Below, one piece after another: positions 20,609 through 48,175 of a stretch of 64,000 nucleotides of DNA. A program made the translations under genes and the position numbers. How positions within the stretch are numbered: position 1 is the stretch's first letter; each line of letters opens with the position of its first letter. The notes beneath the pieces were generated by a model. That model ran no database searches and had not been told where the DNA came from. It saw only the letters and a program-made list of their open reading frames with translations. This stretch comes from a virus (taxonomy: Duplodnaviria > Heunggongvirae > Uroviricota > Caudoviricetes), in IMG/VR virus record IMGVR_UViG_3300045988_158233, one strand, 5' to 3'.

Positions 20609-20814
20609 TCGTGCGTAAAGGATGTTTCGGCTCTCTTATCGCTGCTTCTGAAACTGGTAAGGCTTGTCTGGTGTGTCCAGACAAGCCCGATTGTCACCAA
20701 TCAGCAAAAGAAGTTGCGATTTCGATGCATGGGAAGTTCGTAGGCTTCCCCAATGACAAAATCAAAAAAACCAGAAAGGTAAAAACACATGAAGGCACTG
20801 ATGGTTCGAACTGA
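20605..20814 (+). CDS. small Cys-rich protein (doubtful)
   Basis: 69-aa ORF with C..CxxCPDKPDC; overlaps polymerase start by 26 bp. Confidence 0.25.
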   Translation: MIVRKGCFGSLIAASETGKACLVCPDKPDCHQSAKEVAISMHGKFVGFPNDKIKKTRKVKTHEGTDGSN

Positions 20815-23800
20815 CTTCTCACTTGGGGAGTCGGCTCTAAAAGCAGAAAACGCGGTGAAGATTGCCAGAGAAGCTGGCTACACCGCTGTAATTTCAGCAG
20901 ATAGCATGAATATTGCGAGCGTTATTCCACTACAACGTGCCGCTGGTGACGACATGGCGGTTATTTGTGGTGTGAAACTAAACATTGTTGATGATCCCAC
21001 ATACGAGCACCGGGCTAAACTTGCTAAAGAATCTATGAGATGTATGGAATCATTAGAGCGGGGACGTAACTACTCGTTTACCGCTCTAATTAAAAATGAG
21101 CAAGGATATCGCGACATCTGCGAACTAATGACGGTGGCCAACACACGAGAACAGTTCTACTTTGTACCGCGTCTCTCGCTCGAACAGTTGGTTTCTACAT
21201 ATGCCAAAGGCAACATCATCCTGCTCACTTCCGACATCGGTAGCGTGTTCCAACGCAACGATTTTGCAAAAATCATAAGCTCACTGATTACAGCGGGCGG
21301 GAAAGACAACTTCTATAGCGTGGTTTATCCGCACCCTACCCCATTCTACGACCAGATTAACGTCCGAGCGATGAAAGTAGCCAGCGCACTGAAAATAGAG
21401 CCAGTAGCGTTCTATCCCGCTTATTACGAATCGATCGACGATGCAGACATTAAAGACATTGCGCACATGGTTACGAACAACATAAAAATCGACCAGCCGC
21501 ATCGTCTGCGTATCCCCCACCAGCGAGATAACGCCGTCAATGGTCGCCGCCATCTCCTTGAGGCGCTTAAAGCCTTCTCCGTTCGCATGGATGTGCCGGT
21601 AACAGCTGCAATGGCCTCAACAACGCAGGACTCCATTATCGAAGCCTGTACATGGCGCTGGCATGAATTGCCACCAGCACTGCCCAAGATGGCAGACGAC
21701 GAGCCTGCAACGCTGATGAAACTGGCTGTTGCAGGGCTGCGCAAACGTCTTACCACAAAAGAGTTTGGCTACACACCACCGGCTTCTGAGAACAGGGTTT
21801 ATGTTGAGCGACTTAAGTACGAAATGGACACGCTTACTCGCCTGGGATTTTGTGGTTACTTCCTGATGGTACGCGATCTGATGAATCACAGCCGTGAAAC
21901 TGGCATTCCTGTCGGGCCTGGTCGTGGTTCCTCCGCTGGCTCTTTGGTGGCATGGTGCATAGGCATAACCAACGTCGACCCTATCCGTCACGGTCTTCTG
22001 TTTGAACGTTTCATCAACCCTGAGCGTCTCGACTTGCCAGATGCGGATTTGGACTTCAGCCAGGCACGTCGCCATGAGGTGATCGAGTATCTGAATGAAC
22101 GATACGGCGAAGATTACGTTGCGGGTATTCCGAACTTCACATATCTGGGCGCAGCCTCTGCACTACGTGACACCGCTCGTATTTATGGTGTGGAGTCCGC
22201 AGATATGGCGGTATCAAAAGAACTGAAGAACGTCGAGGATGATAGCCTTCCATTGGAAGAGCTGCGCGAACAACTGGCAAGTCTCGACAAATACGCGACA
22301 AAATATCCTGATGCATTCAATGCAGCCTGCAAGTTACAAAGCCTTATGCGTGGCTTTGGTAGACATGCGGCAGGGATGATCGTAGCAGGTGTTCCTCTGA
22401 CAGAACGTACACCGGTTGAGCGCCGTGGTGACGCGCGTTGTATCGCATTTGACAAGCGTTACTGCGAGGCTATGGGCCTAATTAAGCTGGACGTACTTGG
22501 CCTAGCAACTCTCGATTTGCTTGATAGTGCAAAACGCTACATTAAAGAGAACACAGGTGAAGATATCAATCTTGATGCCATTTCTCTTGAAGATCGCAAG
22601 GTGCTGGATGGTTTTGCTGCTGGGTACACTCAAGGTGTTTTCCAGCTTGAATCAGGCCCAATGCGCAAGCTGCTTAAAGATTTAGGTGGTGGAATTGAGC
22701 CAATGAGCTTTAAAACGGTCGTCGCTACGACTGCGCTCTTCCGGCCGGGGCCAATTCAGTCAGGCATGTTGGATGACTATGTTTCTGTCGCCAAAGGCTT
22801 TATGACGCCGGAATCATTACACCCCGTTCTTGATGAACTTACCGCGGAAACAAATGGCGTGATTCTCTATCAGGAACAGACGATGAACGCGACTCGATTG
22901 CTTGCCGGCTTCACAATGGCTGAAGCTGACGCTGTGCGTTCCGCAATCGGTAAGAAGAACATGGAAAAAATGAAGAGCATGGGCGAGAAGTTCATCGTTC
23001 AGGCTCAAGCTGGCTGGATAGACGTTGAGCTGGAAGATGGCACTACACAGCGCATTCACCGTGCGGAACATTTTAAATGCGAAGACGGAACTCTGAAAAC
23101 TGTCGAAGAGGCACTTGAGCACGGCGCAAAACTACCTATAAACGCAGTACGCGTTACAGCGTCACATCCAGGGCTATCAGAGATGAAAGCGAAGGAGATC
23201 TGGACCGCATTCGAAAAAAATGGTGCCTACCAGTTCAACAAATCACACTCTGTTGCTTACTCCTTGATCAGTTATCAATCTATGTGGTTGAAAACTCATT
23301 ATCCCGCAGAGTTTTTCGCTGCTGCTCTCACTATTCTTGGCGAAGATAAACACCAGGGGCTGGTTAAAGATGCGCTGACCTATGGTATTCGCGTATTGCC
23401 ACCAGACGTTAACGTGTCATCCAACCGAATCGAGATCCGCACGCTTGAAGATGGCAGCCAGGTGCTGTATGCGCCCTTCTCTGCTGTGAAGGGGTGTTCT
23501 GAGAATGGCTGCCAAGCCATCATGAGAGCGCGAGAAAAAGTTGGCGGCAAATTCGAGTCACTGGCGCAATTCGAAGAAGCTGTCGAGAAACGTGCCTGTA
23601 ATAGTCGAGTGCGCGAATCGCTGCAAAAAGTAGGGGCGTTTGCATCCATCGAGCCAGGTAGTCTGCCAGCAACTGATCCAGAGCGCCTACGCGACCAGGC
23701 TGAATTGATGGGAAACCTTGTCATAGACGCAGTTAAAGCCTCACGTCCGTTTGAGATGAACTCCAAACGTTCGGCTGAGATTAACGTGCTCATGACACGG

Positions 23801-24307
23801 ATGGCGGCTGAAATGGGCTTAGGTGATGAACTAATCCGCCCCAGCATTGGTATTAAGCCGAAAATCATGATCATTCTGGACAATGCGAACGGCAATGATG
23901 CTCGAACCGGTTACTTTATGGAGAACGGATACGACGATTTTAAGGCCAAGCTATTGACGGCTGGAGATTTACGCATGGGCGATCTGTATGTCACAGGCGT
24001 TTGCAAAAAGGTGAAAGACAAAGAAAAGGACTACACCAAAGACGAGATCGGCCAGTTCACCGACTTTATGCGTGAAGAGATCAATCTGGTACGTCCGACC
24101 TATGTGCTGACGTGTGGCAGCCGGGCGACGTCGCTCTTCAACAACAAGATCAAACCATCCGACCTGGTTGGACGCAAAGAGTATCTGCCGGAGCTAGATG
24201 TGACTGTTTTCTACGGATTTAACCCGAATATTTTGTACTTTCGCCCAGAGGAAGGCGAAAAGCTGGAAGCAATTCTTGCAGAGGTAGCGGAGACTATTAG
24301 CAAATGA
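20789..24307 (+). CDS. DnaE-family (Pol III alpha-like) DNA polymerase
   Basis: 1172 aa; palm motifs GYFLMVRDL...GIPVGPGRGSSAGSLVAWCIGIT..DP....LLFERFINPER and ..FDK......GLIKLDVLGL..; N-terminal PHP region lacks His residues. Confidence 0.85.
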   Translation: MKALMVRTDFSLGESALKAENAVKIAREAGYTAVISADSMNIASVIPLQRAAGDDMAVICGVKLNIVDDPTYEHRAKLAKESMRCMESLERGRNYSFTALIKNEQGYRDICELMTVANTREQFYFVPRLSLEQLVSTYAKGNIILLTSDIGSVFQRNDFAKIISSLITAGGKDNFYSVVYPHPTPFYDQINVRAMKVASALKIEPVAFYPAYYESIDDADIKDIAHMVTNNIKIDQPHRLRIPHQRDNAVNGRRHLLEALKAFSVRMDVPVTAAMASTTQDSIIEACTWRWHELPPALPKMADDEPATLMKLAVAGLRKRLTTKEFGYTPPASENRVYVERLKYEMDTLTRLGFCGYFLMVRDLMNHSRETGIPVGPGRGSSAGSLVAWCIGITNVDPIRHGLLFERFINPERLDLPDADLDFSQARRHEVIEYLNERYGEDYVAGIPNFTYLGAASALRDTARIYGVESADMAVSKELKNVEDDSLPLEELREQLASLDKYATKYPDAFNAACKLQSLMRGFGRHAAGMIVAGVPLTERTPVERRGDARCIAFDKRYCEAMGLIKLDVLGLATLDLLDSAKRYIKENTGEDINLDAISLEDRKVLDGFAAGYTQGVFQLESGPMRKLLKDLGGGIEPMSFKTVVATTALFRPGPIQSGMLDDYVSVAKGFMTPESLHPVLDELTAETNGVILYQEQTMNATRLLAGFTMAEADAVRSAIGKKNMEKMKSMGEKFIVQAQAGWIDVELEDGTTQRIHRAEHFKCEDGTLKTVEEALEHGAKLPINAVRVTASHPGLSEMKAKEIWTAFEKNGAYQFNKSHSVAYSLISYQSMWLKTHYPAEFFAAALTILGEDKHQGLVKDALTYGIRVLPPDVNVSSNRIEIRTLEDGSQVLYAPFSAVKGCSENGCQAIMRAREKVGGKFESLAQFEEAVEKRACNSRVRESLQKVGAFASIEPGSLPATDPERLRDQAELMGNLVIDAVKASRPFEMNSKRSAEINVLMTRMAAEMGLGDELIRPSIGIKPKIMIILDNANGNDARTGYFMENGYDDFKAKLLTAGDLRMGDLYVTGVCKKVKDKEKDYTKDEIGQFTDFMREEINLVRPTYVLTCGSRATSLFNNKIKPSDLVGRKEYLPELDVTVFYGFNPNILYFRPEEGEKLEAILAEVAETISK

Positions 24308-24482: not shown

Positions 24483-25463
24483 TTAACAAATTCTATTATT
24501 AACTAGTATAGTATGGAGTTTATTATTTATAGGGGAATACGGATCGAAATCACTCATCATGACACTATTTGATTCGCACGCCTGTTCAAAGGCATACATA
24601 ATTATAGGCATATAGCGCTCATGACATTTTTTAAGTGATTTAACTTCCTCTGATAGATACTCTAGTCGATTGTTACCTCTAATAGCCAATTCCACCTCAT
24701 CATATGAGTACAACAAATCGTTTAAATCACAGAAAAAATTAAAATTTGGTAGTCCATGTTTTAAATCCCCGTCCACAATTGTTTCTTCAAAGAATTCCCC
24801 TAATGCAGTAATGTTTCTCTCAATACCTTCGCATCGTTCAATGATCTTCAGATCTTCACTAGATAGCCATAATCTAAGCCATTTCTCTCTATCCCTTGGA
24901 GATTTCAGATATTGGTCTTCGTTAAATGTTACTGATGTACTTCCTGAGTTATTGTAATCCGCTGTACTTGATAACGATGCGATGGTTTGTTTGTCTAAAT
25001 GCCGCCAGTAAATATCTGGCTCTTCATGCTTATTATCTTCGTTTAGACAAATTAAAACGATCACTATAGGGAAATCGCATTCCCCCCAATACTTTAAATT
25101 TTTATAGGGGATCTGTACTCCTAGACTACTACTCATTGTGCGTGAGGTGGTTTTTACCTGAACGCCAATAAACATACCGGTAGAAAGTTCATTTTCATAG
25201 ATTTCAACCTGTGCATCCAACCCCATATCAATATCCAGCAGTCGACAAGGCCATTTGAAATAACGGGAAATCCAATAAGCAAATAAGTACTCACCAGCGT
25301 GTCCTTCTGCACTGGTCTTCGGATATGTCATGCCTTCAGTTTTATTTTTTTCTGCTGCTGACCTCGCAGACTTAACTTTTGGGGGTGGGGACAGTTCTTT
25401 AGTCGGCACAGGCTTTTCTGCTTTTGCTTGATTGTTAGCTTTATTCATTGATTTTATTCTCAC
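24483..25463 (-). CDS. AT-rich protein with PD-(D/E)xK-like nuclease-fold motif (DUF4365-like, tentative)
   Basis: 326 aa; motif GHAGEYLFAYW...DIDMGLDAQVEIY......GVQVKTT; low GC; opposite strand to neighbours. Confidence 0.55.
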   Translation of the reverse strand: MRIKSMNKANNQAKAEKPVPTKELSPPPKVKSARSAAEKNKTEGMTYPKTSAEGHAGEYLFAYWISRYFKWPCRLLDIDMGLDAQVEIYENELSTGMFIGVQVKTTSRTMSSSLGVQIPYKNLKYWGECDFPIVIVLICLNEDNKHEEPDIYWRHLDKQTIASLSSTADYNNSGSTSVTFNEDQYLKSPRDREKWLRLWLSSEDLKIIERCEGIERNITALGEFFEETIVDGDLKHGLPNFNFFCDLNDLLYSYDEVELAIRGNNRLEYLSEEVKSLKKCHERYMPIIMYAFEQACESNSVMMSDFDPYSPINNKLHTILVNNRIC

Positions 25464-26140: not shown

Positions 26141-27169
26141 ATGTCTAAGACATTACTTGATTTGCTTAACAAAACTCGTGAAGACATTGCCGCCAAACGT
26201 GGTAACAACGTTGATCTGACTCGCTTAAAAGACGGCGTTAACTATATCCGCATCTTCCCGAATAAAGACGACCCAAACGGTAAGTTCTTCCAGACTTTCG
26301 GTATGCACTACGTTAAGTATCAGAACGAGGAAGGTAAAGAAGCAACCAACGCTTATATTTGTGAGCAACATACTCACGGTCGCGCTTGTCAGCTATGCGA
26401 AATGGTGATGGAAGGTCGCGCTCGTCACAAGGGTAACAAAGCAATGGAAGAACGCATCGGTCAAATGCGTGCCACTCCTCGCTACCTGGTCAACGGCATT
26501 CTTTCTGCTCGTGAGGATTTCGCAGATGCTGAGAAATGCCAGTTAATCGAGCTGCCGTCTACTGTATTCGATGATATCTGCAAAGCAATCACCGAAGACA
26601 TCGCTGATGATATCGGCAATCCACTGAGCAAAGAGGAAGGCTACGCATTCCTGATTAAACGTACTGGCTCTGGTCGCGATACCAAATATGACGTCTCGCC
26701 TAAGCGTAAAGTCTACAAAGGCGATATCGAAGATAAATTCTGGAACACCCAGCATGATCTGATCGCATACGCAAATCAGGCTGATGAAACTCGTCTTCTG
26801 TCGACAGTTCGCACTATGGGTCGTCTGATTGGCATCGCTGCACCAACTGCCGCAGCATCTGCACCAGCAATTTCCTCAACCGCGAAAACATCGGCTGCGG
26901 CACTACCTGGATTTGGCTCTGTCACTGGTCATACAGAAGGAGCGACGGCTGTAGCAACCGCGCACACACCGGCTTCTGAACCAACCAGTCTGGTTGATGA
27001 AGAAATCCTCCGTGCCGTTGAAACTGAATTTAAACCAGAGGCAAGTTCCGCTGCCGTTGCCGTATCAGTCAAAGAGTCTGAAGCAGTCGCAGCGACATCT
27101 GTAGCAACCGCATCTGCGACGGAAGATGAAGGTCTGGATGACCTACTGAGAGAGCTGGACTCTCTGTAA
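26141..27169 (+). CDS. single-stranded DNA-binding protein, gp32-like (tentative)
   Basis: Zn-type motif CEQHTHGRACQLC, Ala/Ser/Thr-rich linker and acidic C-terminal tail EDEGLDDLLRELDSL. Confidence 0.5.
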   Translation: MSKTLLDLLNKTREDIAAKRGNNVDLTRLKDGVNYIRIFPNKDDPNGKFFQTFGMHYVKYQNEEGKEATNAYICEQHTHGRACQLCEMVMEGRARHKGNKAMEERIGQMRATPRYLVNGILSAREDFADAEKCQLIELPSTVFDDICKAITEDIADDIGNPLSKEEGYAFLIKRTGSGRDTKYDVSPKRKVYKGDIEDKFWNTQHDLIAYANQADETRLLSTVRTMGRLIGIAAPTAAASAPAISSTAKTSAAALPGFGSVTGHTEGATAVATAHTPASEPTSLVDEEILRAVETEFKPEASSAAVAVSVKESEAVAATSVATASATEDEGLDDLLRELDSL

Positions 27170-27178: not shown

Positions 27179-28174
27179 GTGACCAGTAAGGCGTCTACGG
27201 ACGCCTTACTTTTTGGAAGGAATGTACCGGTGAATTATCTCTTCGTAGATGGCAATAGCCTGGGTTATTACCACCAACAATCTGACAAATTGCACAACGG
27301 CGAAATGGAAGTACAGGCTGCTTTCGGCTTTGTTAAGAACGTCCGTCGTTATGCCTCCATCCTCCATGCCCGACCTATGATTCTTTGGGATGGATTTAGT
27401 GACAAGCGTCGCGACTTTTACCCGGACTACAAAGCAAATCGCGACGACGATCCTGATATGAAAAAGATGAAGGAAGGCTTTGCTATCCAGAAGCCATACA
27501 TCCTCAAAATGATGACCGCGCTTGGAGTTACCCAACTCATTGCAAAAGATGCAGAAGCGGATGATCTGGCCGGGCTGCTGGTATCCCGCATGGCACCGCA
27601 GCCAACCGTTGAACACATCTATCTGTTAACAGGCGATAGCGACTGGCTTCAGTTAGTTCGTGAAAACGTAAGCTGGGTAAGCCTGCGTGAAGACGCCAAA
27701 AACAAGCAGGTTAATTTTGAGCAATTTGCGGAGCTGACAGGATTCGCCACGCCTCGCGCATTTTTGGAAGCAAAAGCATTACAAGGCGATAACTCGGACA
27801 ACATTAGCGGTGTTGGTGGCATTGGTGCTGGCGGTGCGAAAGAGCTGCTGCATGAATGGGGAAGTGTCGCAACGATGGTACGCGGCATCAACGACGGCTC
27901 AATCGTGGTTAATAAAGGGCGTCATAAGACCGCCTTCAACAAACTAGCGAAGAATGCCTTCAACGAGAAAACAGGCTGTCGAATGCTCGAAGCGTTCAAG
28001 AGAAACATCACGCTAATGAACCTGATTGAGACGAAGTTTCCGCCTACCGAAATCGAAACAATCAAAGGCAATCGTGACGTGAAAGCATTCGAGCAACTGT
28101 GCTACGAGCTGAATTTCCGTTCGTTCCTTGAAGACCTTGAAGTGTTTGTTCTTCCATTCGAAAGGTATTGCTAA
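27179..28174 (+). CDS. 5'-3' exonuclease / flap endonuclease (T4 RNase H-like)
   Basis: FEN motifs LFVDGNSL, YKANRD, LTGDSD, QGDNSDNISGVGGIG; a hairpin plus T-run overlies 27186..27214 so true start may be GTG 27230. Confidence 0.75.
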   Translation: MTSKASTDALLFGRNVPVNYLFVDGNSLGYYHQQSDKLHNGEMEVQAAFGFVKNVRRYASILHARPMILWDGFSDKRRDFYPDYKANRDDDPDMKKMKEGFAIQKPYILKMMTALGVTQLIAKDAEADDLAGLLVSRMAPQPTVEHIYLLTGDSDWLQLVRENVSWVSLREDAKNKQVNFEQFAELTGFATPRAFLEAKALQGDNSDNISGVGGIGAGGAKELLHEWGSVATMVRGINDGSIVVNKGRHKTAFNKLAKNAFNEKTGCRMLEAFKRNITLMNLIETKFPPTEIETIKGNRDVKAFEQLCYELNFRSFLEDLEVFVLPFERYC

Positions 28175-28442: not shown

Positions 28443-29516
28443 ATGGCAAAAGGAAAATCCGCACTGGCACTTGCTCTGAAAAAGAAAATCGGTAGCAACG
28501 ACGAAATTCAGAAAGTAACTCATTGGATTGATACAGGCTTTCCACCGTTAAACAAAGCTATTTCTGGTCGTTACGATGGCGGCTTCCCATGTGGTCGTAT
28601 CGTCGAAGTATTCGGTCCTCCAAGTGCAGGGAAAACGTTCCTTGCAACAGCAGCGATGATCTCCGCTCAAAAACAAGATGGTCTGGCGGTATTCCTCGAT
28701 CATGAAAACAGTTTTGACGTTGGCCTGGCTGTAGCCAATGGCCTGAACGCAGATGAGGATGACGGTCAGTGGGTATACAAGCAGCCAGATACCTTCGAAG
28801 ACTCTGTAGAGTTGATCGGCACAATACTTAAATTGGTTCGTGATGAAGAGCTTATCCCCGAATCAGCACCTATCTGTATCGTGGCTGACTCTCTTGCGTC
28901 TATGGTTCCGAACTCCAAAGCTGAGAAGTTCGAAAAGATGGCTGAAGGCACTGCCAAAGACAAAGATCAGCTAAACATGAACGACAATACGGCACTGGCT
29001 CGTGCGACGAGTGCGAACTTCCCTACTCTGGCTTTGTGGGCACGCAAATACAACGCCTGCATCATCTTCTTGAATCAGGTTCGCACAAAAATCGGTGTAA
29101 TGTTTGGCGACCCTACTACGTCGCCAGGTGGAGATTCACCGAAGTTCTACGCTTCTGTACGTATCCGTCTTGGTGCATCGGTGATGAAGGATGGTAAAGA
29201 GAAGATCGGCCAGGACGTAGGCGCAGAATGCATCAAAAACAAAGTTGCACCACCGTATGGCAAATGCACCTGGAAATTCTACTTCGATCCTACTCGTGGC
29301 CTCGACGTTATCGAATCGCTCGTCGAGTACATGCTGGAAGAAGGATACCTGCCAAAGAACGCCAGCGGGCGAGTTGAAATTGGTGACAAGAAATACACCA
29401 AATCGCAGATCGTCGAGATGTATCGGGAGAAGCCACTGGCTGAAATCATTGCGGCTTTGCAGGCAATCGACGACCGAAGAGCAAAAGACAACCCCACCGA
29501 GTCAGTAGAAGAGTAA
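28443..29516 (+). CDS. RecA-family recombinase
   Basis: Walker A GPPSAGKT, Walker B ICIVADSLASM, and conserved FLNQVRTKIGVMFGDPTTSPGG..PKFYASVRIRLG. Confidence 0.8.
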   Translation: MAKGKSALALALKKKIGSNDEIQKVTHWIDTGFPPLNKAISGRYDGGFPCGRIVEVFGPPSAGKTFLATAAMISAQKQDGLAVFLDHENSFDVGLAVANGLNADEDDGQWVYKQPDTFEDSVELIGTILKLVRDEELIPESAPICIVADSLASMVPNSKAEKFEKMAEGTAKDKDQLNMNDNTALARATSANFPTLALWARKYNACIIFLNQVRTKIGVMFGDPTTSPGGDSPKFYASVRIRLGASVMKDGKEKIGQDVGAECIKNKVAPPYGKCTWKFYFDPTRGLDVIESLVEYMLEEGYLPKNASGRVEIGDKKYTKSQIVEMYREKPLAEIIAALQAIDDRRAKDNPTESVEE

Positions 29517-32254: not shown

Positions 32255-32302
32255 ATGCAAACTGACTGCGGCACGTTCCGCAGTCATATTTCATAGTCGT
32301 CA

Positions 32303-32834
32303 CCGCTGACAGCATACACAATCAACTGCCGCTGATAGCATATCGAGAGTCTATCTCACCGCTCACAGCATACTTTACTCGATTTTTTACCGCTGACAGC
32401 ATACTTAAGACATTGCATGAATAATGTGTACCGGTATGGGTATAACCAGAACAAAATTACCGCTGGCAGCATACGAAGGTCTGATATATGCCATTAATTA
32501 CCGCTGATAGCATATCCAAACAAAAATTCCTCAATAAAACACCGCTGACAGCATACGTTCTATCAGGGAGCAGCAGGCAATAAATACCTTTCACTACAAG
32601 TAATCAGCGCAATGGGAATAGAATGTTAGTGAGCGCAAACCTATATGGAATGCACTCTTCGAGGTTAGTAACCACTGGGGAGGTATAAAAGAGCATTGAG
32701 TGGTGATAGATGATTTACCGCTCACAGCATACGTTTATCTCACTATACCGCTGGTAGCATATCTTTAACCGTTCACAGCATACTTTTCAGAAAAATAGCC
32801 GCTGATAGCATACATTTCACCGCTGACAGCATAT
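32303..32834. repeat. iteron array downstream of repA (incA-like copy-control repeats)
   Basis: About 11 copies of CCGCTGACAGCATAC and variants (ccgctgatagcatat, ccgctcacagcatac, ccgctggcagcatac, ccgttcacagcatac) with irregular spacing. Confidence 0.8.
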
Positions 32835-33928: not shown

Positions 33929-33949
33929 GTGGACACCTTTGTCATTCAA

Positions 33950-34050
33950 CCGCTGACAGCATACTTGATTTGCCGCTGACAGAATACCAAAAACAGTTGG
34001 CAGCATACGGTGAACCGCTGACAGACTATCAATTACCGCTGACAGCATAC
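33950..34050. repeat. iteron array upstream of repA (origin/incC-like)
   Basis: About 5 copies of CCGCTGACAGCATAC-type repeats between 33950 and 34050. Confidence 0.75.
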
Positions 34051-34087
34051 ATGAACATGGCTTCAGACCAGTCGTGGCGCGGCTTAC

Positions 34088-39122: not shown

Positions 39123-39692
39123 ATGAGTAAAAAAATCAGCGTAGTTGGTGTTGATCCCTCAATGAGCAACTTTGGGCTTGCTGTGGGCACTTTAGACCTT
39201 GAGACGGACGAACTTGAGATTCACGGCCTTACTCTTGTTGAGACTAAAGCGGGGAGTAACAAAAAGACCGTTCGTGTGAACAGTGACGATCTGCGCCGAG
39301 CCAGTGAAATATGGCGTGTTGCGAAGCCAATCATTGATAAGGCAAATATGGTTTTTTGTGAGCTACCGGTTGGGAGCCAAAACTCTCGTTCGCAGACGTC
39401 TTACGGTATTTGTATCGGTGTACTTGCGTGTGTGGATAAGCCATTGATCCAGGTTACTCCAAACGAAATCAAGCATTTTGTCGGCAATAAACTTACTACA
39501 TCGAAAGAAGAGATTATCCAGTGGGCTACGAAAAAACACCCTAAAGCACCGTGGCTGCGTCGTAAGCAATCTGGACAGGATGTTCTCGTGAACAAAAACG
39601 AACATTTGGCTGATGCGGTGGCTGCCATCCATACCGGTATGCAAACAGATCAGTTCCGCCAGGTGCGCGATGTTCTTAAGTCTCTCATTTGA
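39123..39692 (+). CDS. RuvC-like Holliday junction resolvase (tentative)
   Basis: N-terminal VVGVDPSMSNFGLAV, CELP and C-terminal EHLADAVAAIH resemble RuvC catalytic motifs. Confidence 0.55.
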   Translation: MSKKISVVGVDPSMSNFGLAVGTLDLETDELEIHGLTLVETKAGSNKKTVRVNSDDLRRASEIWRVAKPIIDKANMVFCELPVGSQNSRSQTSYGICIGVLACVDKPLIQVTPNEIKHFVGNKLTTSKEEIIQWATKKHPKAPWLRRKQSGQDVLVNKNEHLADAVAAIHTGMQTDQFRQVRDVLKSLI

Positions 39693-39765: not shown

Positions 39766-42125
39766 ATGATAAGCATCGTAAAACGTAACGGCCAAACAGA
39801 GCCGTTATCCGAAGAAAAATACAACCGCGTCGTAATGTATGGCGTAGAAGGCATTCGTGGTGTAAGCGCATCCGCTGTAGCAATGGGAGCTGCGGCCAGC
39901 ATTTTTGATGGGATTACCACCAGCCAGTTGCATGAGGCTTTGGTTAAATCTGCCGCTGATTTGATCTCACCAGAAGCACCAAATTACTCACAGGTGGCTG
40001 CCCGCCTGAACATTTTTAAAATCCGCAAAGATGCCTTCGGTCGTTACGACTATCCGAACTTCTACCAACACATTGTCAAGAACGTTAACAAGGGCGTTTA
40101 TGACAAGGATTTGCTGACACATTATTCGTTTGAAGAGATCGAAGAACTCGGCAATTACATTAAGCCGAAACGTGACGATCTTTTTGGCTATGCAGCTACG
40201 GTGCAGTTGCAAAGCAAATACCTCGTTCAAAACCGTGTTACTGGTGAGATTCATGAGGGGCCGCAACATATCTATATGCTGGTAGGCATGTGTCTGTTCC
40301 AGAATTGGGAAGACGACTGCGCTGGCAAAACACGTATGGAGATGGTCAAAGGTTTCTATGACGTTACAAGTACGTTCAAACTGTCTCTGCCCACACCAAT
40401 CATGGCCGGCGTCCGTACTCCAACCCGTCAGTTCTCCAGTTGTGTGCTGATTGAGTCTGGCGATAGTCTGAAAGGGATTAGTGCAGCTTCAGCCGCAATT
40501 ATCGACTACGTTTCACGTCGTGCTGGAATTGGTATTGGTTTTGGCCGTATCCGTGCGCTGGGCAGCGAGATCCGCAATGGTGAAGCCACCCATACTGGAG
40601 TTATTCCATTCCTGAAGCATTTCCAGACGGCTGTTAAATCTTGTTCGCAAGGTGGTGTTCGTGGTGGCGCAGCAACAGCGTTTTACCCGATCTGGCATCT
40701 TGAAGTTGAAAGTCTGCTGGTGGTGAAAAATAACCGTGGTATTGATGAAAACCGCGTTCGCCATCTTGATTACGGCGTCATGAGTAACCGTCTAATGTAC
40801 CGTCGACTCGTCAGAAGCGAGAACATCACTCTGTTCAGCCCGCATGATGTGCCTGATATGTACGAAGCCTTCTTCACAGACCAGGAGCTGTTTGAAAAGC
40901 TGTACCATAAATACGAAGCCGATGATTCAATTCGCAAGAAGTCAGTACCTGCCATTGAGCTGTTCTCATCTCTGATGCAGGAACGAGCGTCCACGGGCCG
41001 AATTTATATTGCGAACGTCGATCATATTAATGAGCATGGCGCTTTCATTCCTGCTCTTGCACCTGTTCGCCAGTCAAACCTGTGTATGGAGATCACCCTA
41101 CCCACCCGTCCACTGGCATTTACCGACGACCCGAACGGTGAGATCGCGCTATGCACTTTATCCGCTTTTAACCTCGGAGCCATCCGTTCACTGGAGTCTC
41201 TTAAAGAGGTGGCGTTCTATGCCGTTGCTGCACTGGATTCGTTACTGGATTATCAAGACTATCCGATGGAGGCAGGCCGAGTTGCCCGCCACTCAAAGTT
41301 GCTTATCCGATGGAGGCAGCCGAAGTGCCTGCCAAAGCTCGTCGTAGCTTGGGAATTGGTGTAACCAACTTTGCTTATTACCTGGCAAAGAATGGCGTTC
41401 GTTATTCTGATACCGCTGGCAATAAACTGGTGCATGAAACGTTCGAAGCTATCCAGTATTACCTTCTTGATGCCAGCTGCCGACTTGCTGAAGCAAAAGG
41501 TGAGTGTGACTGGTTTGAGCAGACCAAATACGCAATTGGTCAGTTGCCGATCGACCATTACCGTTCTTCATTAGACGAAAGTGGCGAAACCAACTTTGAG
41601 TTAAAGATGCCGTGGGAAGAACTGCGTGAACGTATTGCAAAATACGGCCTTCGCAACTCCACTCTGACGGCACAAATGCCATGCGAGACTTCCAGCCAGA
41701 TCACTAATTCCACCAACGGCATCGAACCGCCTCGTGGCCCGGTGTCAGTGAAATCTTCTAAGGACGGCATCGTCAAGATGGTCGTGCCTGAGTTTGAAAA
41801 ACTGAAGGAACAGTATGAATACCTGTGGGATATGCCGGACAACCGCGGCTATCTGACAAAGGTGGCGATCATCCAGAAGTTCTTTGACCAGGCTATTTCG
41901 GCCAATACCAACTATGACCCTTCTCGCTTTGAAGGCGATAAAGTCCCAATGATGACGCTACTGTCAGATTTGCTTCTCGCCTACAAGATGGGAGTTAAAA
42001 CGCTTTACTACCACAACACCAGAGATGGTGCAGGAAAGCGTGATGACGACGAACCGCAGAATCCACTGGCGCAAGCTGTAGCCGTCGAGCCAGAAGATGA
42101 GTGCGACGGAGCCTGCAAAATCTGA
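39766..42125 (+). pseudogene. nrdA: class Ia ribonucleotide reductase alpha subunit, reading frame interrupted near 41276..41319
   Basis: Two ORFs (39766..41364 and 41310..42125) together align to full-length NrdA; 44-nt segment flanked by 16-bp direct repeats causes the frame change. Confidence 0.8.
41276..41319 (+). repeat. 44-nt insert within nrdA bounded by 16-bp direct repeat
   Basis: tatccgatggaggcag at 41260..41275 and again at 41304..41319; intervening unique 28 nt gccgagttgcccgccactcaaagttgct. Confidence 0.8.
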
Positions 42126-42130
42126 CATAT

Positions 42131-42149
42131 GGTGGGGGATATCCCCACC
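42131..42149 (+). terminator. GC-rich hairpin after nrdA
   Basis: ggtgggggatatccccacc followed by T-rich tract. Confidence 0.5.
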
Positions 42150-42187
42150 TTCTCTTTGATTTGTAAGCCTTGTTTAAACACATAAGA

Positions 42188-42200
42188 TAACAACTTGTTT
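42188..42200. promoter_or_regulatory. motif A palindrome (1 mismatch) upstream of nrdB
   Basis: taacaacttgttt; a second half-site ttgtttaaac at 42170. Confidence 0.35.
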
Positions 42201-42231
42201 AAACGCACCAAAAAAGAAAAAGGAAAAACAC

Positions 42232-43374
42232 ATGTCATATTCAACGTTCCGTTTGGGTGCTAATGATGCAACCAAAGAGCCTATGTTCCTCGGACAATCT
42301 GTCAACGTGGCACGTTACGATCAGCAAAAATACCGTGATTTTGAAAAGTTGATTGAACGTCAATTGTCTTTCTTCTGGCGGCCGGAAGAAGTTGATATTT
42401 CGAGCGATCGTATCGACTTCAACACGAAGCTGCGGGACCACGAACGTCACATTTTTCTGAGCAATCTCCGTTATCAAACGTTACTCGATTCAGTTCAGGG
42501 ACGTAGTCCAAATGCAACGCTGCTGCCGCTTATCTCTATTCCTGAACTGGAAACGTGGGTTGAAACGTGGTCTTTCTCTGAGACTATCCATAGCCGCAGC
42601 TACACCCACATTATTCGTGGCATGGTGGACGATCCGAGCATTGTTTTTGACGGTATTGTTACGGATGAAGAAATCATCAACCGAGCGATCAGTATCTCTG
42701 CTGAATATGACAGGCTTTATGGGATGACCTGCGAGCGCCAGTCGTTAGGTGAGAAGGAGTTTGAACGTCTGTACGTAAATGAATATGGCTGGGAGCCATA
42801 CCCTTTGCACCGTCAGCTTTTCCGCACGTTGGTGTCCATTAATGCGCTTGAGGCGATCCGTTTCTATGTAAGTTTTGCATGTACGTTTGCCTTTGGCGAA
42901 CGGAAGTTGCTTGAGGGTAACACCAAAATTATGCGCTTTATTGCCCGTGATGAAGCTCTGCATTGCGAAGGAACTGAACGCATGATCCGCTTCATGCGTA
43001 CCGGTCGCGAAGGTTTATTGTGGAAAGAGATTGCTGCTGATGAAGAAAACGTCATTTACGACACCATGAAATCAGTCGCCGAACAAGAAATGAACTGGGC
43101 AGACTATCTCTTCAAAGACGGTTCGATGATTGGTTTAAACGCGGATATTCTCAAAACCTATGTAAAATACCGCACCAATCTGGCTATGAATCGTCTTGGC
43201 CTGAAGGCTTTATTTCCAGAGGTTACCACCGATCCGCTGGTCTGGATGAACAAGTGGTTGTTAACCGACACACTGCAAATTGCACCACAAGAGGCAGAGC
43301 AAAGCACATATCTGGTAGGTCAGATCGATTCTACCGTGGATAAGGCTTCTCTAAGCCAGTTTGCTGACCTGTAA
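42232..43374 (+). CDS. nrdB: class Ia ribonucleotide reductase beta subunit
   Basis: 380 aa; diiron/tyrosyl-radical region ...[15 protein letters not shown]... and [11 protein letters not shown]. Confidence 0.85.
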
Positions 43375-43451
43375 ACCGATACAAAGCATTATGTGGCCTG
43401 GCAACGCTGGGCCACAATGGATCACAAGAATTAAGAAGGAACAAAACTAGC

Positions 43452-44321
43452 ATGAACTTTACCAAACTGACTGACCACCTGAAACTTGCCACCGATCGAC
43501 TCATTGGATTTAAGCCAGAACCATATGAGTTGCATGAAGGTCATGGTGTAGCTACTGAAAGTATTTACAAGATGGTCGATCAGTTTCATGAACTCTTCCA
43601 GCATCCGAGACGCGTTATGCCGACACCAGAGCTGCTTCGTCTCCGTGCAAGCCTGATTCATGAAGAAGCTGTAGTGGAAGGTATTCCAGCCGCAATGAAT
43701 GGGGATATTGAGCAACTGCTGGATGCAATGGCCGACTTTTTATACGTTGGTGTTGGTACGATGGTCGCCATCAAAGGTGGTATTTCTACCGGCATGACCT
43801 ATTACACGCAGGAACAGAGCATTGATCGCTTTATGCAGACAATTTTTGTGCCCGGTAACACTGTTTTCGATGATATGGCAATGCCATTTCAGGAAGCTCG
43901 TGAGGCGTCATGTATGCTCGAAGAGCTGGCAGATAAACTTGAGAACAAGACTGTTAAGGATTCTGAGCTGATTCAGGAACTGCGCCGTGTCATGAACAAA
44001 ATCTATGTGGCGTGCATGATGACCTATCGACTGGCTGATTTCCTCGGTATCAATGTAGTCGAGCTGGTTGGCGAAATTCATCGGTCTAACATGACAAAAT
44101 TATGGCCTGCTGATGTCGAGGAACGTCGCCAGGCTGTGGCCAACTGCAAATACGACTCTTCAGACCTGGGATTTCGCCATGCTGATGGTACCGATAAGAT
44201 GATCGGTTTTCGAATTTCCGATGGAAAGATTCTGAAGTCTCCAACCTATAGTGATGTCGATTTATCCTCCTTTGTTGAGCAAGCTAAAGCCTCAGCAATG
44301 TACGGAATGATCAAAAAATAA
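43452..44321 (+). CDS. hypothetical protein (possibly MazG-like NTP pyrophosphohydrolase)
   Basis: Acidic helical motifs HEEAVVEG...GDIEQLLDAMADFLY; location within nucleotide-metabolism cluster. Confidence 0.35.
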   Translation: MNFTKLTDHLKLATDRLIGFKPEPYELHEGHGVATESIYKMVDQFHELFQHPRRVMPTPELLRLRASLIHEEAVVEGIPAAMNGDIEQLLDAMADFLYVGVGTMVAIKGGISTGMTYYTQEQSIDRFMQTIFVPGNTVFDDMAMPFQEAREASCMLEELADKLENKTVKDSELIQELRRVMNKIYVACMMTYRLADFLGINVVELVGEIHRSNMTKLWPADVEERRQAVANCKYDSSDLGFRHADGTDKMIGFRISDGKILKSPTYSDVDLSSFVEQAKASAMYGMIKK

Positions 44322-44464
44322 TTGTAGGTAGTTATCTATCTATGTATATTGTGTTAGCGCGTTAAATTCCTGAAACAACTATTCGTTTTGGTGGCCTATG
44401 GCCACCATTTTTTTATCTATCTGGCCTTGTTCCCTCAATAAATGTAAACTCACGTAATGAATAA

Positions 44465-45595
44465 GTGGTTACTTATCTTTGTGAGGTTTTTGTGTCACTC
44501 CTTTTGAATCGTGAGCATACGAACGGTCAGGTAACAAACGCATCGTATGCAAAAGTTATTGAGACGGTGCTTAAAAGCGGCGTGCAGGCTGATGATCGCA
44601 CAGGCACTGGTACTTTAAGCACCTGCTACGTTCCCTCTTACTACATGCTTACTGGTGGGACTGTGCCGCTTATTTCTGGAAAGGCGGTAAATCTTAAGCC
44701 ACTGCTTGTCGAACTTGAGTGGTATCTGAAAGGCACGGGCAACATCCAATTTCTCAAGGATAACGGCGTTAAGATTTGGGATGCATGGGCCGATGAGAAT
44801 GGCGATTTGGGGCCAGTTTACGGTAAGCAGTGGCGTCGATGGGAAGATACCCGCATCGTGAGCCATAGTGAATATCTGAGCAAGATCGCTACTTTCCGTG
44901 AACGCGGGTACAAAGTCGAGGGATACCTAGGTATCAGTGAAGATCGCGTAGTGCTGTCCCGTGAAATCGATCAGCTACAGCGTATTGTCGATACACTGCG
45001 CACGAACCCTACCGATCGTCGCATCATGCTTAACGCATGGAACGTAGGCGAGCTTGAGGATATGAAACTGCCACCTTGCCACTTTGTCTTCTCTTTGTGG
45101 AGTCGTGAGCTTGATTTTGAAACCCGTTTAACGATGGCAACTGACATTGGTCTTCAACACAGTCGCCTCGGTTACGAGTCTATCTACACCAAGATGCTAT
45201 ACGATCTGGAGATGGACGGCAGTGTTACTGAAGCTGAACTGGATGAACTTGGAATCCCCAAACGCATCCTCAACTCCTGCCTCGTACAGCGTAGCGTAGA
45301 CACTTTTGTTGGTATGCCATTCAATATTGCTGGCTATGGCATTCTCACTCATTTTCTCGCGAAGATTACGGGTCACATGGCCGGTGCATTTGTGCATTTT
45401 GGCTTTGACGTGCATTTGTACAATAACCACATGGAAAGTGTGCGTGAGCTAATGCAACGACAGGCTCCAGAGCATTCAGATCCGGTCGTTATATTCCCTA
45501 ATGAATGGTCTGAGCTGGATGATTTCAAATGGGACGAGATTCTTATTCTTGGCTATGCCCCTCTACCGTGGATCAAGGTTCCAGTGGCGGTGTGA
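44465..45595 (+). CDS. thyA: thymidylate synthase
   Basis: DRTGTGTLS and catalytic LPPCHF motifs; no in-frame ATG, start GTG 44465 or GTG 44492. Confidence 0.8.
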   Translation: MVTYLCEVFVSLLLNREHTNGQVTNASYAKVIETVLKSGVQADDRTGTGTLSTCYVPSYYMLTGGTVPLISGKAVNLKPLLVELEWYLKGTGNIQFLKDNGVKIWDAWADENGDLGPVYGKQWRRWEDTRIVSHSEYLSKIATFRERGYKVEGYLGISEDRVVLSREIDQLQRIVDTLRTNPTDRRIMLNAWNVGELEDMKLPPCHFVFSLWSRELDFETRLTMATDIGLQHSRLGYESIYTKMLYDLEMDGSVTEAELDELGIPKRILNSCLVQRSVDTFVGMPFNIAGYGILTHFLAKITGHMAGAFVHFGFDVHLYNNHMESVRELMQRQAPEHSDPVVIFPNEWSELDDFKWDEILILGYAPLPWIKVPVAV

Positions 45596-45596
45596 T

Positions 45597-46010
45597 ATGG
45601 CAAGAGGTATGTATGTCTTATGCGAAATTGAAGGTGTGCTGGCAAATACCAGCCATCGTAAATCTGTATCTGACTCGGATGCAGGCCAATTCATTGCCGG
45701 TGATGAACTCATTTTCCCCACCAGCCGTATGTTGCGTGGTTTTGCTCGCTCAGGGGCTGAAGTGGTGCTTATCAGTAGCCGCTCTGAAACTCTTGAAGCG
45801 CCCACTAAACGATGGCTGAAAGATTTTGGTGTTGATTACGACTGGCTTCATCTCGTACCGAATAGCACTAGTTATGAGAAGCATATTAAGCGCACATTAG
45901 CGGAGCATAAAGGCGATCTGCTTATCGCTGCGCTGGTGCACGATCCTCGACTCCGTGCCGCTTTAGCTGACTCTCATCATAGACCGGTCATCTATGAGGT
46001 GAGCAAATGA
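45597..46010 (+). CDS. hypothetical protein
   Basis: 138 aa from ATG overlapping thyA stop (TGATATG). Confidence 0.4.
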   Translation: MARGMYVLCEIEGVLANTSHRKSVSDSDAGQFIAGDELIFPTSRMLRGFARSGAEVVLISSRSETLEAPTKRWLKDFGVDYDWLHLVPNSTSYEKHIKRTLAEHKGDLLIAALVHDPRLRAALADSHHRPVIYEVSK

Positions 46011-46483
46011 AGATGATAGCTGCTGTTGGCCGTAACTATGAGATCGGCATAGCGAACGAACTGCCCTGGCGTTGTTCTACCGATCTGAAGCTATTTAAGA
46101 GACTCACCAAAAACGCCACTGTCGTTATGGGGCGTAAAACGATGGAAAGTCTCAAACGCCCTCTTCCAGAGCGTCATAACCTCGTTTTGACGCGCTCTCA
46201 TGGCTTTGTACCAAATGGATTCTACCCTGCTGGTGTGGATGATGTGTTGCGATTACCAGAGCCTGTGTGGGTGATTGGCGGGAAACAAATTTACTCGCTA
46301 TTCATGCCGCATGTTGAAGAGATTTGGCTCTCCCACATCGACGTTGATGTGCCAAACGCCGATGCATTCTTCCCGGCAAGCATGATGCGTAATTTAGGCT
46401 TTGTGCCTGTTGAAACAGCTTATACCCAACGAGCCAGCGAGGAAGAGCCTGGCTTTTCGCAGATCGTATACAGAAGGTCGTAA
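46007..46483 (+). CDS. dihydrofolate reductase
   Basis: MIAAVGRNYEIGIANELPW, VVMGRKTMESL, VIGGKQIY. Confidence 0.8.
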   Translation: MKMIAAVGRNYEIGIANELPWRCSTDLKLFKRLTKNATVVMGRKTMESLKRPLPERHNLVLTRSHGFVPNGFYPAGVDDVLRLPEPVWVIGGKQIYSLFMPHVEEIWLSHIDVDVPNADAFFPASMMRNLGFVPVETAYTQRASEEEPGFSQIVYRRS

Positions 46484-47127
46484 TGGATTACCGGATTGGG
46501 ATCACTGGTGCTCAGGGCAGTGGGAAAACAACCCTGGCTAAATATATCGACAAACATTACGGAATCCCTTACGTGGATGCTGGTGTCGGAAGTTTGATGA
46601 GCCGCCTCGGTGTTCGAGTAGGTGAGTCTATGCCTCTATATGAGCGGCTTCAGATTCAAATGGAAATAGCAAAGCATATAGAGCTACTTACACGTGGTGT
46701 TGAAGGCTTTGTTATCGATCGCACACCTGCTGATGTTATGGCCTACACGTTGGATTTGGTCGGCCATACAAATGAAGATCGGTGTATTGAGTTAGCCCTC
46801 GATATCGAAAAGTTTTGCCACAAAACTGCTATTTCAAACTTTAACGCCATTGCTGGCCTACGCCCGGGGGTCTCTCTCTCAGAGCGAGATTACTTGCGGT
46901 CACAACGAGCATCATTAGACCGTCTGTATGTCGCTCGTATTGATGCGTTGATGTGCGGGGAACTGACAAAAATTCACCTGCATCCGCAAAGGGGAGATCT
47001 GCAAACCTTCGTCGTTTCCAACCGGTATCGCACAGTTGAAGCAAGAGCCAGATCAGTAATGAGAATGCTCGATAACGCGGTAGAAAAGATAGAAAACCGC
47101 TTCTGTGGCCGAGTTACCGTTCATTAG
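46483..47127 (+). CDS. P-loop nucleotide/nucleoside kinase (dNMP-kinase-like)
   Basis: Walker A GITGAQGSGKTT at N-terminus, ~210 aa, in nucleotide-metabolism operon. Confidence 0.5.
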   Translation: MDYRIGITGAQGSGKTTLAKYIDKHYGIPYVDAGVGSLMSRLGVRVGESMPLYERLQIQMEIAKHIELLTRGVEGFVIDRTPADVMAYTLDLVGHTNEDRCIELALDIEKFCHKTAISNFNAIAGLRPGVSLSERDYLRSQRASLDRLYVARIDALMCGELTKIHLHPQRGDLQTFVVSNRYRTVEARARSVMRMLDNAVEKIENRFCGRVTVH

Positions 47128-47188
47128 AAATTGTTCGCCTCTTCGACATTGCGACAATAAAACTCTCAAAATGGGTTAAGGATAAAAA

Positions 47189-47608: not shown

Positions 47609-47617
47609 GGAGTTTTG

Positions 47618-48175
47618 ATGACAACGATTGTTGCAGGCATCGATATCGAGTCTACGGGGCTGGATTTCCTTTCTGGTCATAAAATTATTGAAATCGCAAT
47701 TACCCGCTATGAACTGGAGACACAGAGACATATTGATAGTCTGGAGATGCGTTTTAACCCTCGCAGGAACATAGATCCGAAAGCTCAAGCCGTTCATGGC
47801 ATTTCATTAGAACAGCTGGCAGCTGAACCTTTGTTGTCAAATCATGCCAGCGAAATTGGCGCTTATATGGAGGCATGTAGTGCGTGGGTTGCTCATAACG
47901 GCGAAGCGTTTGATATACCATTTATTAGACACGAGTTTTCAGGGTATGGAGTAAGACTGCCAGACGTTCCCGTTATAGATACTATGTTATCGGGATTGTG
48001 GGCCACAGAAGACGGCAAACGTCCTCGCCTTGAAGAATTGGCCTTCTCTCTTGGCTTTATATACGATCATACCAAAGCACATAGTGCCTTATATGACACA
48101 AACTTAATGATGCAATGCTTCTTTAAGGCACGTAATAAATACGGATTTTTTAAATTACCCTCTGAAATTGTGTAA
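47618..48175 (+). CDS. DnaQ-like 3'-5' exonuclease (DEDDh)
   Basis: Exo motifs GIDIESTG, HNGEAFDIPF, HSALYD; RBS aaggag before ATG 47618. Confidence 0.75.
   Translation: MTTIVAGIDIESTGLDFLSGHKIIEIAITRYELETQRHIDSLEMRFNPRRNIDPKAQAVHGISLEQLAAEPLLSNHASEIGAYMEACSAWVAHNGEAFDIPFIRHEFSGYGVRLPDVPVIDTMLSGLWATEDGKRPRLEELAFSLGFIYDHTKAHSALYDTNLMMQCFFKARNKYGFFKLPSEIV

Follow-up and report, generated by a model that had tools for sequence, protein, structure and literature searches.

A DnaE-type polymerase with a degenerate PHP domain and a separately encoded DnaQ-like exonuclease in an SSU5-type phage-plasmid

What proofreads for a DnaE-type DNA polymerase whose own PHP domain has decayed? The question is raised by a 64,000-nucleotide stretch of viral DNA (IMG/VR record IMGVR_UViG_3300045988_158233; 'the window' below, meaning the whole of this stretch), which we assign to an SSU5-type phage-plasmid related to Salmonella phage SSU5 and Escherichia phage PhiR41_1. 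It encodes a C-family polymerase and, after a gap of 23.3 kb, a stand-alone DEDDh exonuclease that is the last gene of a nucleotide-metabolism run (Table 1). A first-pass annotation, made from the sequence alone, had described the polymerase as having a degenerate PHP domain without the His residues of an active one, had called the exonuclease a DnaQ-like proofreader, and had seen in the pair, with a DnaB-like helicase, a primase, a single-stranded DNA-binding (SSB)-like protein and a ligase, a self-contained replisome of unusual composition. All of these genes are indeed found by Pfam. Our analysis suggests that proofreading in trans for the phage DnaE is the most likely function of the 185-amino-acid (185-aa) exonuclease, a role that we regard as probable rather than assured.

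Membership of the polymerase in the C family follows from four Pfam domains, all of which exceed their gathering scores: PHP (PF02811, aa 6–175, E = 6.5e-13), DNA_pol3_alpha (PF07733, aa 309–571), the finger domain (PF17657, aa 574–740) and HHH_6 (PF14579, aa 866–955, E = 1.7e-16). The domain order is PHP, Pol3 palm/thumb, fingers, an insertion, a tandem helix–hairpin–helix region, (HhH)2, and a C-terminal domain resembling uracil-DNA glycosylase (UDG). The score with NCBIfam model TIGR00594, 631 bits, is above its cut-off of 434, and the nearest solved structures are the DnaE1 proteins of Taq and Mycobacterium tuberculosis (E from 1e-122 to 1e-114) and the alpha subunit of Escherichia coli, the whole set spanning E from 1e-122 to 1e-109. 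No NCBIfam DnaE equivalog cut-off is passed, the best being NF004226 (679 bits against 1002); with these scores, and with a UDG fold at its C-terminus, the protein falls outside DnaE1, the E. coli-type replicative alpha subunit.

The state of the PHP domain was read at the metal-ligand positions of a MAFFT alignment of clade members, E. coli DnaE and the DnaE proteins of two Streptomyces phages. The Streptomyces-phage proteins keep the full set of nine (H, H, D, H, E, H, C, D, H). In the window protein, M5, R7, E14, S39, K63, S96, a gap, P210 and Y212 occupy these positions, so that none of the nine is identical, all five His are gone and E14 is the sole conservative replacement; E. coli alpha, with R10, H12, D19, F44, D69, H83, G134, D201 and R203, retains four identical ligands and one conservative substitution. 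A HMMER alignment to M. tuberculosis DnaE1 (5lew) is concordant for the N-terminal ligands and the final two positions, and differs from MAFFT by a residue or so at two middle positions, where the ligand is lost either way. Equal degeneracy is found in the proteins of SSU5, a Xenorhabdus plasmid, the phages nickie and RHEph10, BUCTxx99 and two metagenomic proteins (45–54% identity). A domain search thus does return a PHP match, yet one that retains no metal ligand, and the domain, more degenerate than that of E. coli DnaE, appears not to be an active proofreading domain, which bears out the first-pass description.

The polymerase active site itself is intact. The catalytic Asp residues D418, D420 and D568 correspond to E. 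coli D401, D403 and D555, and the equivalents of E. coli K553, R390, R362 and H760 (the last being H820) are also conserved. The phage DnaE would be expected to synthesise DNA, with a PHP domain that is purely structural, and, since the PHP ligands are all gone, it should be unable to proofread by itself.

The exonuclease, which corresponds to the catalytic domain of epsilon, has every DEDDh residue (D9, E11, D99, H155 and D160; motifs DIESTG, HNGEAFD and HSALYD), and these five are invariant in its 107 full-length homologues, the whole set being 175–205 aa long. It matches Pfam RNase_T (E = 2e-21) and PHROG 192, 'DNA polymerase exonuclease subunit' (E = 9e-52). Among PDB entries, the catalytic domain of E. 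coli epsilon (1j53, E = 6.5e-11) comes closest to it. NCBIfam models for epsilon and for the exonuclease domains of PolC and DinG give 62–73 bits, against 21.8 bits for the RNase T model and 15.6 for Exo X. A profile search of viral contigs with the exonuclease alignment listed 80 loci, all at 57% identity or more. The first-pass annotation placed its start at TTG 47615, but the ATG at 47618, behind an AAGGAG ribosome-binding site, is the likelier one.

According to section 19 of PMC3919608 and the Discussion of PMC12926913, DnaQ, as a domain or as a stand-alone protein, complements a PHP domain that is inactive, and the pairing of a PHP-dead DnaE with a DEDDh exonuclease in the window fits this rule. 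We propose that the exonuclease acts in trans as the 3'-5' proofreader of the polymerase, in the way epsilon serves E. coli alpha. In E. coli, epsilon is tethered by its C-terminal segment to the PHP domain of alpha (PMC3664792; PMC2528190). In the window protein, about 25 residues follow Exo III; it is without this alpha-binding segment (E. coli residues of about 190–243), and therefore would be recruited differently from E. coli epsilon.

The beta clamp may offer one route. The exonuclease lacks the QTSMAF clamp motif of epsilon, and at the equivalent position after the last helix it has a family-wide conserved G[FL]Fx[LI]P (GFFKLP here), from which the leading Gln is absent. On the polymerase, the candidate motif QAELM lies in a linker directly after the HhH region, which is also where the internal clamp motif of E. 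coli alpha is found. The clade consensus here is DQxEL[LM], with the variants QLELL (RHEph10), QLELM (BUCTxx99) and QKELL, and homologues of 37–63% identity all keep R966 and Q970 in an otherwise variable linker (residues 11–22 of our C-terminal model, a low-confidence stretch with a predicted local distance difference test score, pLDDT, below 50). Known clamp-binding pentapeptides are of the QL[SD]LF type, and the linker variants fall within that range. The sequence 'SRPFE', which MAFFT aligned to E. coli QADMF, was rejected as a clamp motif, R986 being the sole conserved residue there; the motif with the invariant Q970, which lies upstream, is the better candidate.

We found no sliding clamp, clamp loader or tau among the open reading frames (ORFs) of the window scanned with Pfam and PHROG, a scan that did not take in every ORF and that divergent clamps could escape, and none is annotated in positions 1–100,000 of PhiR41_1. 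The first-pass description of the replisome as self-contained is thus unsupported. With neither a clamp nor a clamp loader of its own revealed by these scans, the element would most simply make use of the host beta clamp, and the candidate motifs on both proteins also suggest it; the model that we favour is one in which polymerase (QAELM) and exonuclease (GFFKLP) would each dock on the host clamp through a short motif. The ORF at 46483–47127, which has a weak clamp-loader match in PHROG, was rejected as such, as Pfam finds in it only a small domain of P-loop kinase type and its nickie counterpart is annotated as a thymidylate kinase.

The most distinctive feature of the polymerase went unremarked in the first-pass annotation: a UDG fold stands in place of the oligonucleotide-binding (OB) fold and tau-binding domain. 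Residues 960–1172, modelled with AlphaFold2 from a 12-sequence alignment (pLDDT 83.8; predicted template-modelling score, pTM, 0.81), have their best Foldseek match in the family-4 UDG of Sulfolobus tokodaii (4zbx; E = 1.9e-12; TM-scores 0.72/0.79), followed by the UDGs of Thermotoga maritima and Thermus thermophilus (1l9g, 1ui0), UdgX and TDG; TM-scores to family-4 UDG and UdgX span 0.64–0.79. The Pfam UDG match is sub-threshold (E = 1e-3) in the window protein, a precomputed PF03167 match exists for three homologues, and the RHEph10 record notes 'uracil-DNA glycosylase-like'. The model thus confirms a UDG alpha/beta fold, but family-4 scores, motifs and Cys residues are lacking. TIGR00758 gives only 31–36 bits against a cut-off of 125. 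Canonical family-4 enzymes have GE[AG]PG as motif A, HPS as motif B and four Cys for a 4Fe–4S cluster; motif A in the window is LDNAN (L-D-[NGA]-[AP]-[NS] in the clade), motif B is N-P, and the clade alignments contain no invariant Cys for such a cluster. Glycosylase activity is doubtful. D1031 and N1145–P1146 are invariant in the clade, and so a pocket may persist.

We suppose that the UDG-fold domain takes the place of the OB fold, either to bind DNA or to sense uracil. Taken as a whole, these features could describe a stripped-down, clamp-centred Pol III-like core, in which a PHP-dead DnaE and a tail-less exonuclease are joined only by docking next to each other on the two clefts of the host beta2 clamp (by QxEL[LM] and G[FL]Fx[LI]P), without an alpha–epsilon tether, tau or theta, and with the altered UDG fold as the DNA-binding or uracil-sensing element in place of OB. 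As a complete picture this is tentative and on balance unlikely.

To see how far polymerase and exonuclease travel together, we searched 50,697 phage records with both proteins by tblastn. A DnaE-like gene occurs in 1214 records, and only 31 have a full-length match that includes the UDG domain: 12 SSU5-like, 10 Rhizobium (RHEph10-like), six Pseudomonas syringae (nickie-like), two Stenotrophomonas and one Xanthomonas. Orthologues of the exonuclease (at least 36% identity) occur in exactly the same 31 records, the seven other matches being weaker (27–35%), and the Streptomyces phages whose DnaE keeps all nine PHP ligands gave no match to the exonuclease at E 1e-8. In records that place the two genes on a single linear map, 25–31 kb separate the polymerase from the exonuclease downstream of it. 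The order of the module (DnaB-like helicase, primase, ligase, CobT, CobS, DnaE, gp32-like SSB, flap exonuclease, RecA, SbcD/SbcC, RuvC-like protein, NrdAB, ThyA, dihydrofolate reductase (DHFR), kinase, exonuclease) is common to SSU5, nickie and RHEph10 despite protein identities of 35–40%, with minor local differences; in RHEph10, nrdB precedes nrdA, and DHFR and the kinase are without annotation. The 10-kb flanks of a 54%-identical polymerase (P0107) retain the order CobT–CobS–DnaE ... gp32–flap exonuclease–RecA, the exonuclease region being farther away than these flanks reach. Both genes are thus ancient core members of one replication module, found in phages of about 110 kb from Enterobacteria, Rhizobium, Pseudomonas, Stenotrophomonas and Xanthomonas. 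The composition, which the first-pass annotation called unusual for a phage-like element, is unusual among coliphages but not new, given the 1214 DnaE-like records, annotated relatives and a published architecture.

Several observations weigh against a proofreading partnership, and the link between polymerase and exonuclease is itself one that we only infer. The 31 genomes form one syntenic lineage in which all core genes co-occur, so a perfect 31 of 31 shows retention, not partnership. The exonuclease gene closes a same-strand nucleotide-metabolism run and is not adjacent to dnaE. Its product has no alpha-binding segment and stays below every curated epsilon cut-off (NF004316, 72.7 against 196; TIGR01406, 66.7 against 222.7) and below that of the generic dnaq domain model TIGR00573 (52.8 against 71.5), three models that E. 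coli DnaQ, run as a control, all passes. The proposed clamp motifs are short, that of the exonuclease is without the usual leading Gln, and a divergent phage clamp could have been missed. The label 'DnaQ-like proofreader' is thus supported as regards a stand-alone, epsilon-like DEDDh exonuclease but not as regards a physical partner of the polymerase.

Several of these same points (the position 23 kb from dnaE at the end of the run, the missing tail, the unmet epsilon cut-offs), together with an NCBI family name that says only '3'-5' exonuclease', are what one would expect if the protein were not the proofreader at all, but a general DNA exonuclease for salvage, recombination or end-processing, co-expressed with the genes for deoxynucleotide synthesis. 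T4 DexA is an example of this type. We consider such a role unlikely, as the closest sequence relatives are epsilon and the PolC exonuclease and not the RNase T, Exo X or Orn types, the partner polymerase has no other evident proofreader, the gene accompanies this polymerase in every lineage and is absent, at comparable identity, from the other phage records, and the element is a temperate phage-plasmid.

Like E. coli alpha, the polymerase might instead use its PHP domain to recruit host epsilon (DnaQ), leaving the phage exonuclease to act elsewhere. That the PHP fold is kept despite the loss of all its ligands does suggest a structural or docking role, and the hosts are gamma-proteobacteria with a canonical epsilon. 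However, the domain has diverged so far from that of E. coli alpha that its first ~96 residues escape alignment by HMMER, and phages of Rhizobium, Pseudomonas and Stenotrophomonas pair the same polymerase with an exonuclease of their own, which points to a self-supplied partner; recruitment of host epsilon is highly improbable.

A further alternative concerns the polymerase rather than its partner. If the DnaE were an accessory or error-prone enzyme of DnaE2 or DnaE3 type, the host Pol III could copy the element from a RepA/iteron origin and no dedicated proofreader would be needed. A degenerate PHP is typical of DnaE2 and DnaE3 (section 19 of PMC3919608), the OB and tau-binding domains of DnaE1 are absent and all DnaE1 equivalog cut-offs are failed, and the window does have a plasmid-type RepA with at least 14 iterons. 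We nonetheless regard this as quite improbable. The error-prone DnaE2 model scores 400 bits on the polymerase, against 679 for DnaE1 models, and no ImuA/ImuB-type partners were seen. Moreover, dnaE lies within a complete module (helicase, primase, ligase, SSB, flap exonuclease and RNase H) that is conserved over deep divergence and is also present in phages, such as nickie, without plasmid genes annotated in the regions examined. A trans-acting exonuclease that proofreads for a phage replicase therefore remains our preferred reading.

The assignment of the window to the SSU5 type is supported by nucleotide identity, synteny and the occurrence of plasmid functions (RepA with iterons, and ParA) beside phage genes. 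By megablast, the dnaE DNA is 96% identical to Escherichia phages PhiR41_1 and CMS-2020a, 90% to phage Cyrano, 85.5% to SSU5 and ~80% to Klebsiella SSU5-like phages; the polymerase protein is 98.6% identical to the 'DNA polymerase III alpha subunit' of PhiR41_1, and the gene order of the window is that of SSU5 and PhiR41_1. The SSU5 family is well described as phage-plasmids (PMC7969092), and the element that hosts the two genes is a temperate phage-plasmid. The Rep3-type repA and its flanking iterons have the make-up of a classical iteron plasmid origin set inside a phage replication region. An integrase gene is also present in the window (Pfam). Clinical E. coli, Salmonella and Klebsiella are among the sources of the SSU5-like elements that database searches turned up. 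At 12492–13049, the window has four clustered tRNA genes (Asn-GTT, Tyr-GTA, Thr-TGT and Ser-TGA); SSU5 has one annotated tRNA (Asn) in the part of the corresponding region examined.

Table 1. Features of the window that bear on replication and on the nature of the element.
Feature	Position	Strand	Evidence
DnaE-type C-family polymerase, 1172 aa	20789–24307	+	Pfam, NCBIfam, PDB matches
Degenerate PHP domain, aa 1–300	20789–21688	+	MAFFT read-out; HMMER alignment to 5lew
Polymerase core, palm/thumb aa 309–571 and fingers aa 574–740	21713–23008	+	
Insertion of ~50 aa, aa 741–790, confined to SSU5/Xenorhabdus subclade	23009–23158	+	Alignment
(HhH)2/beta-binding-domain region, aa 866–955	23384–23653	+	Pfam HHH_6
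Candidate beta-clamp-binding motif, Q970-A-E-L-M974	23696–23710	+	Linker after HhH
Family-4-UDG-like domain, aa ~990–1172	23756–24304	+	AlphaFold2 and Foldseek
Stand-alone DEDDh 3'-5' exonuclease, epsilon-like catalytic domain only, 185 aa	47618–48175	+	
ParA-like ATPase	539–1207		
DnaB-like helicase	3759–5099	+	Pfam
DnaG/Toprim-like primase	5109–6362	+	Pfam
ATP-dependent DNA ligase	9583–10905	+	Pfam DNA_ligase_A_M, E = 9e-13
CobT-like VWA protein	17169–19277	+	Pfam
CobS-like AAA+ (AAA_5) ATPase	19373–20608	+	Pfam
gp32-like SSB	26141–27169	+	Pfam
5'-3' flap exonuclease	27179–28174	+	Pfam
RecA-like recombinase	28443–29516	+	Pfam
Iterons, at least 14 copies of ~22 nucleotides, core ACCGCTGACAGCATAC	32297–32835 and 33944–34051		Both sides of repA
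RepA, plasmid-type initiator, Rep3 family	32834–34048	-	Pfam Rep3_N
Nucleotide-metabolism run: nrdA (disrupted), nrdB, MazG-like, thyA, DHFR, P-loop kinase	39766–47127	+	
RNase HI, candidate for primer removal	50871–51515	+	Pfam RNase_H, E = 1.3e-45

The dnaE gene takes other forms among relatives of the element. In Klebsiella SSU5-like elements it is divided into two ORFs, one of 787 aa (PHP, Pol3 and fingers) and one of 389 aa (HhH and UDG-like domain), between which, at the site of the ~50-aa insertion, lies a free-standing gene for a NUMOD4–HNH homing endonuclease of 233 aa (for example in Klebsiella phage vB_KpnS_p4727, 301–4553 of the locus). The two-piece polymerase is probably functional, because the 787-aa form stands for more than 1000 database sequences. 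Three database relatives (P0097, P0103 and P0118) have N-terminal regions of the polymerase joined to a RecA domain (PF00154), as would be expected if the dnaE–recA interval of about 4 kb had been lost in degenerate phage-plasmid derivatives. Xanthomonas phage JGB6 (OQ436456.1) was left out of our alignments, its hit coordinates having landed on unrelated annotations; in this record the replication genes, dnaE included, are broken into many short ORFs, which points to numerous frameshift errors and makes it unsuitable for comparison uncorrected.

Around these genes, the helicase–primase order is the same in SSU5, nickie and RHEph10. In all lineages examined, namely SSU5, nickie, RHEph10 and a metagenomic relative at 54% identity, the CobT/CobS pair lies just upstream of dnaE, separated from it in some by one to three small ORFs; in loci L002, L003 and L093 the pair is at 13982–17383, 10988–14830 and 4641–8245. 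This position suggests that the pair works with the replication module, and not in cobalamin synthesis, and the AAA+/VWA pair might be an unrecognised accessory factor. Directly downstream of dnaE, a DUF4365 protein is encoded in a low-GC patch (24483–25463, minus strand, GC 0.41). The same site holds an AlpA-like gene and others in SSU5, and a YafO-toxin-like gene with a GSP_synth gene in a distant relative, so it looks like a variable accessory or defence slot. After the primase, a 396-aa Sel1-repeat protein (6354–7544, minus strand) overlaps the called end of the primase ORF and breaks the otherwise same-strand run of replication genes.

Within the nucleotide-metabolism run, nrdA, for the large subunit of a class Ia ribonucleotide reductase (39766–42125), consists of two overlapping ORFs of 532 and 271 aa. 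Compared with PhiR41_1, in which nrdA is a single ORF, a frame-shifting 44-bp insertion is present at 41260–41303, which is an imperfect duplication with the 16-bp repeat TATCCGATGGAGGCAG at its borders; the split gene is either a pseudogene or an assembly error. The ORF at 39123–39692, 'RNase H-like' in SSU5, was considered as a second DEDD exonuclease and rejected, being a RuvC-like resolvase (PHROG 159). RNase HI bears an N-terminal extension of ~55 aa, and an Mrp/NUBPL-type P-loop ATPase (61917–63017, minus strand; PF10609, E = 2e-102) is unusual cargo for a phage; PhiR41_1 has a methionyl-tRNA synthetase and a UmuD-like protein annotated nearby.

The finding is largely ordinary: the element, both genes and the polymerase architecture are already in public records or in the literature. 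In PhiR41_1 the polymerase is labelled 'DNA polymerase III alpha subunit' and the exonuclease 'DNA polymerase III epsilon subunit'; '3'-5' exonuclease' is another label in public records of the family, and the exonuclease is 'Exonuclease, PolIII subunit epsilon' in Cyrano and 'dnaQ' in nickie. Literature searches on phage DnaE with UDG and PHP, on the pHCM2 polymerase and on DnaE/DnaQ of nickie and RHEph10 returned no experimental work on this polymerase or exonuclease, and no description of complete PHP ligand loss in this clade, of a tail-less exonuclease with a conserved motif at the position of the epsilon clamp motif, or of a strict linkage between the two genes in phages from several groups of proteobacteria. 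E. coli is the textbook case of an inactive PHP paired with a DnaQ-type proofreader, and the pairing as such adds little. Any wider interest would lie in the departures from it in this widespread family of phages and phage-plasmids: an untethered epsilon-like nuclease, a UDG fold for the OB and tau-binding domains, and an apparent dependence on the host clamp. If studied, the system could serve as a minimal two-protein model of C-family proofreading and as a natural test of the means by which a proofreader acting in trans locates its polymerase, and it is possibly a determinant of mutation rate in SSU5-like elements.

Among known systems, the closest are the other members of the SSU5 family (SSU5, PhiR41_1, Cyrano, CMS-2020a and the Klebsiella SSU5-like elements), with the same gene order, dnaE identities of 85–96% for DNA and 92–99% for protein, and exonuclease identities of 80–98% (73.5% in two GArcari Klebsiella records); the window differs in its disrupted nrdA and in the DUF4365 accessory gene downstream of dnaE. 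The polymerase architecture is that described for 'DnaEX', a Pol III alpha variant in which an archaeal-type family-4 UDG (PF03167) replaces the OB fold and C-terminal domain (CTD), reported as an additional polymerase of certain Yersinia pestis and Salmonella enterica strains (Timinskas et al., NAR 42:1393, online 2013; PMC3919608, section 14). Both share a PHP–Pol3–(HhH)2 core with a UDG tail, the UDG fold being confirmed here by AlphaFold2 and Foldseek. The passages of PMC3919608 that were searched make no link to phages or phage-plasmids, to PHP status or to a companion exonuclease. To the family-4 UDG and UdgX enzymes themselves the modelled domain is structurally similar, but the canonical motifs and the conserved Fe–S Cys residues are absent from it.

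The Pol III core of E. coli (alpha–epsilon–theta) likewise combines a DnaE whose PHP is non-catalytic with a separately encoded DEDDh proofreader, and has one clamp motif after HhH and another directly after the exonuclease fold, as in the candidate motifs here. In contrast, E. coli alpha keeps four to five of the nine PHP ligands that are all lost in the window protein, has an OB fold and CTD where the UDG fold stands here, and binds an epsilon segment that the window exonuclease is without; theta, tau and clamp loader were likewise not found in the window. A mycobacterial DnaQ homologue called 'noncanonical' contributes to replication fidelity as a second proofreader (PMC11348249). In mycobacteria, however, the PHP domain is the active, primary proofreader, whereas here it is dead and the exonuclease would be the sole one. 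The mycobacterial protein reportedly acts through the beta clamp. Finally, vaccinia D4 is a UDG that serves as a polymerase processivity subunit, so that a UDG-fold module coupled to a replicative polymerase has a precedent, the module in the window being fused to a polymerase of the C family.

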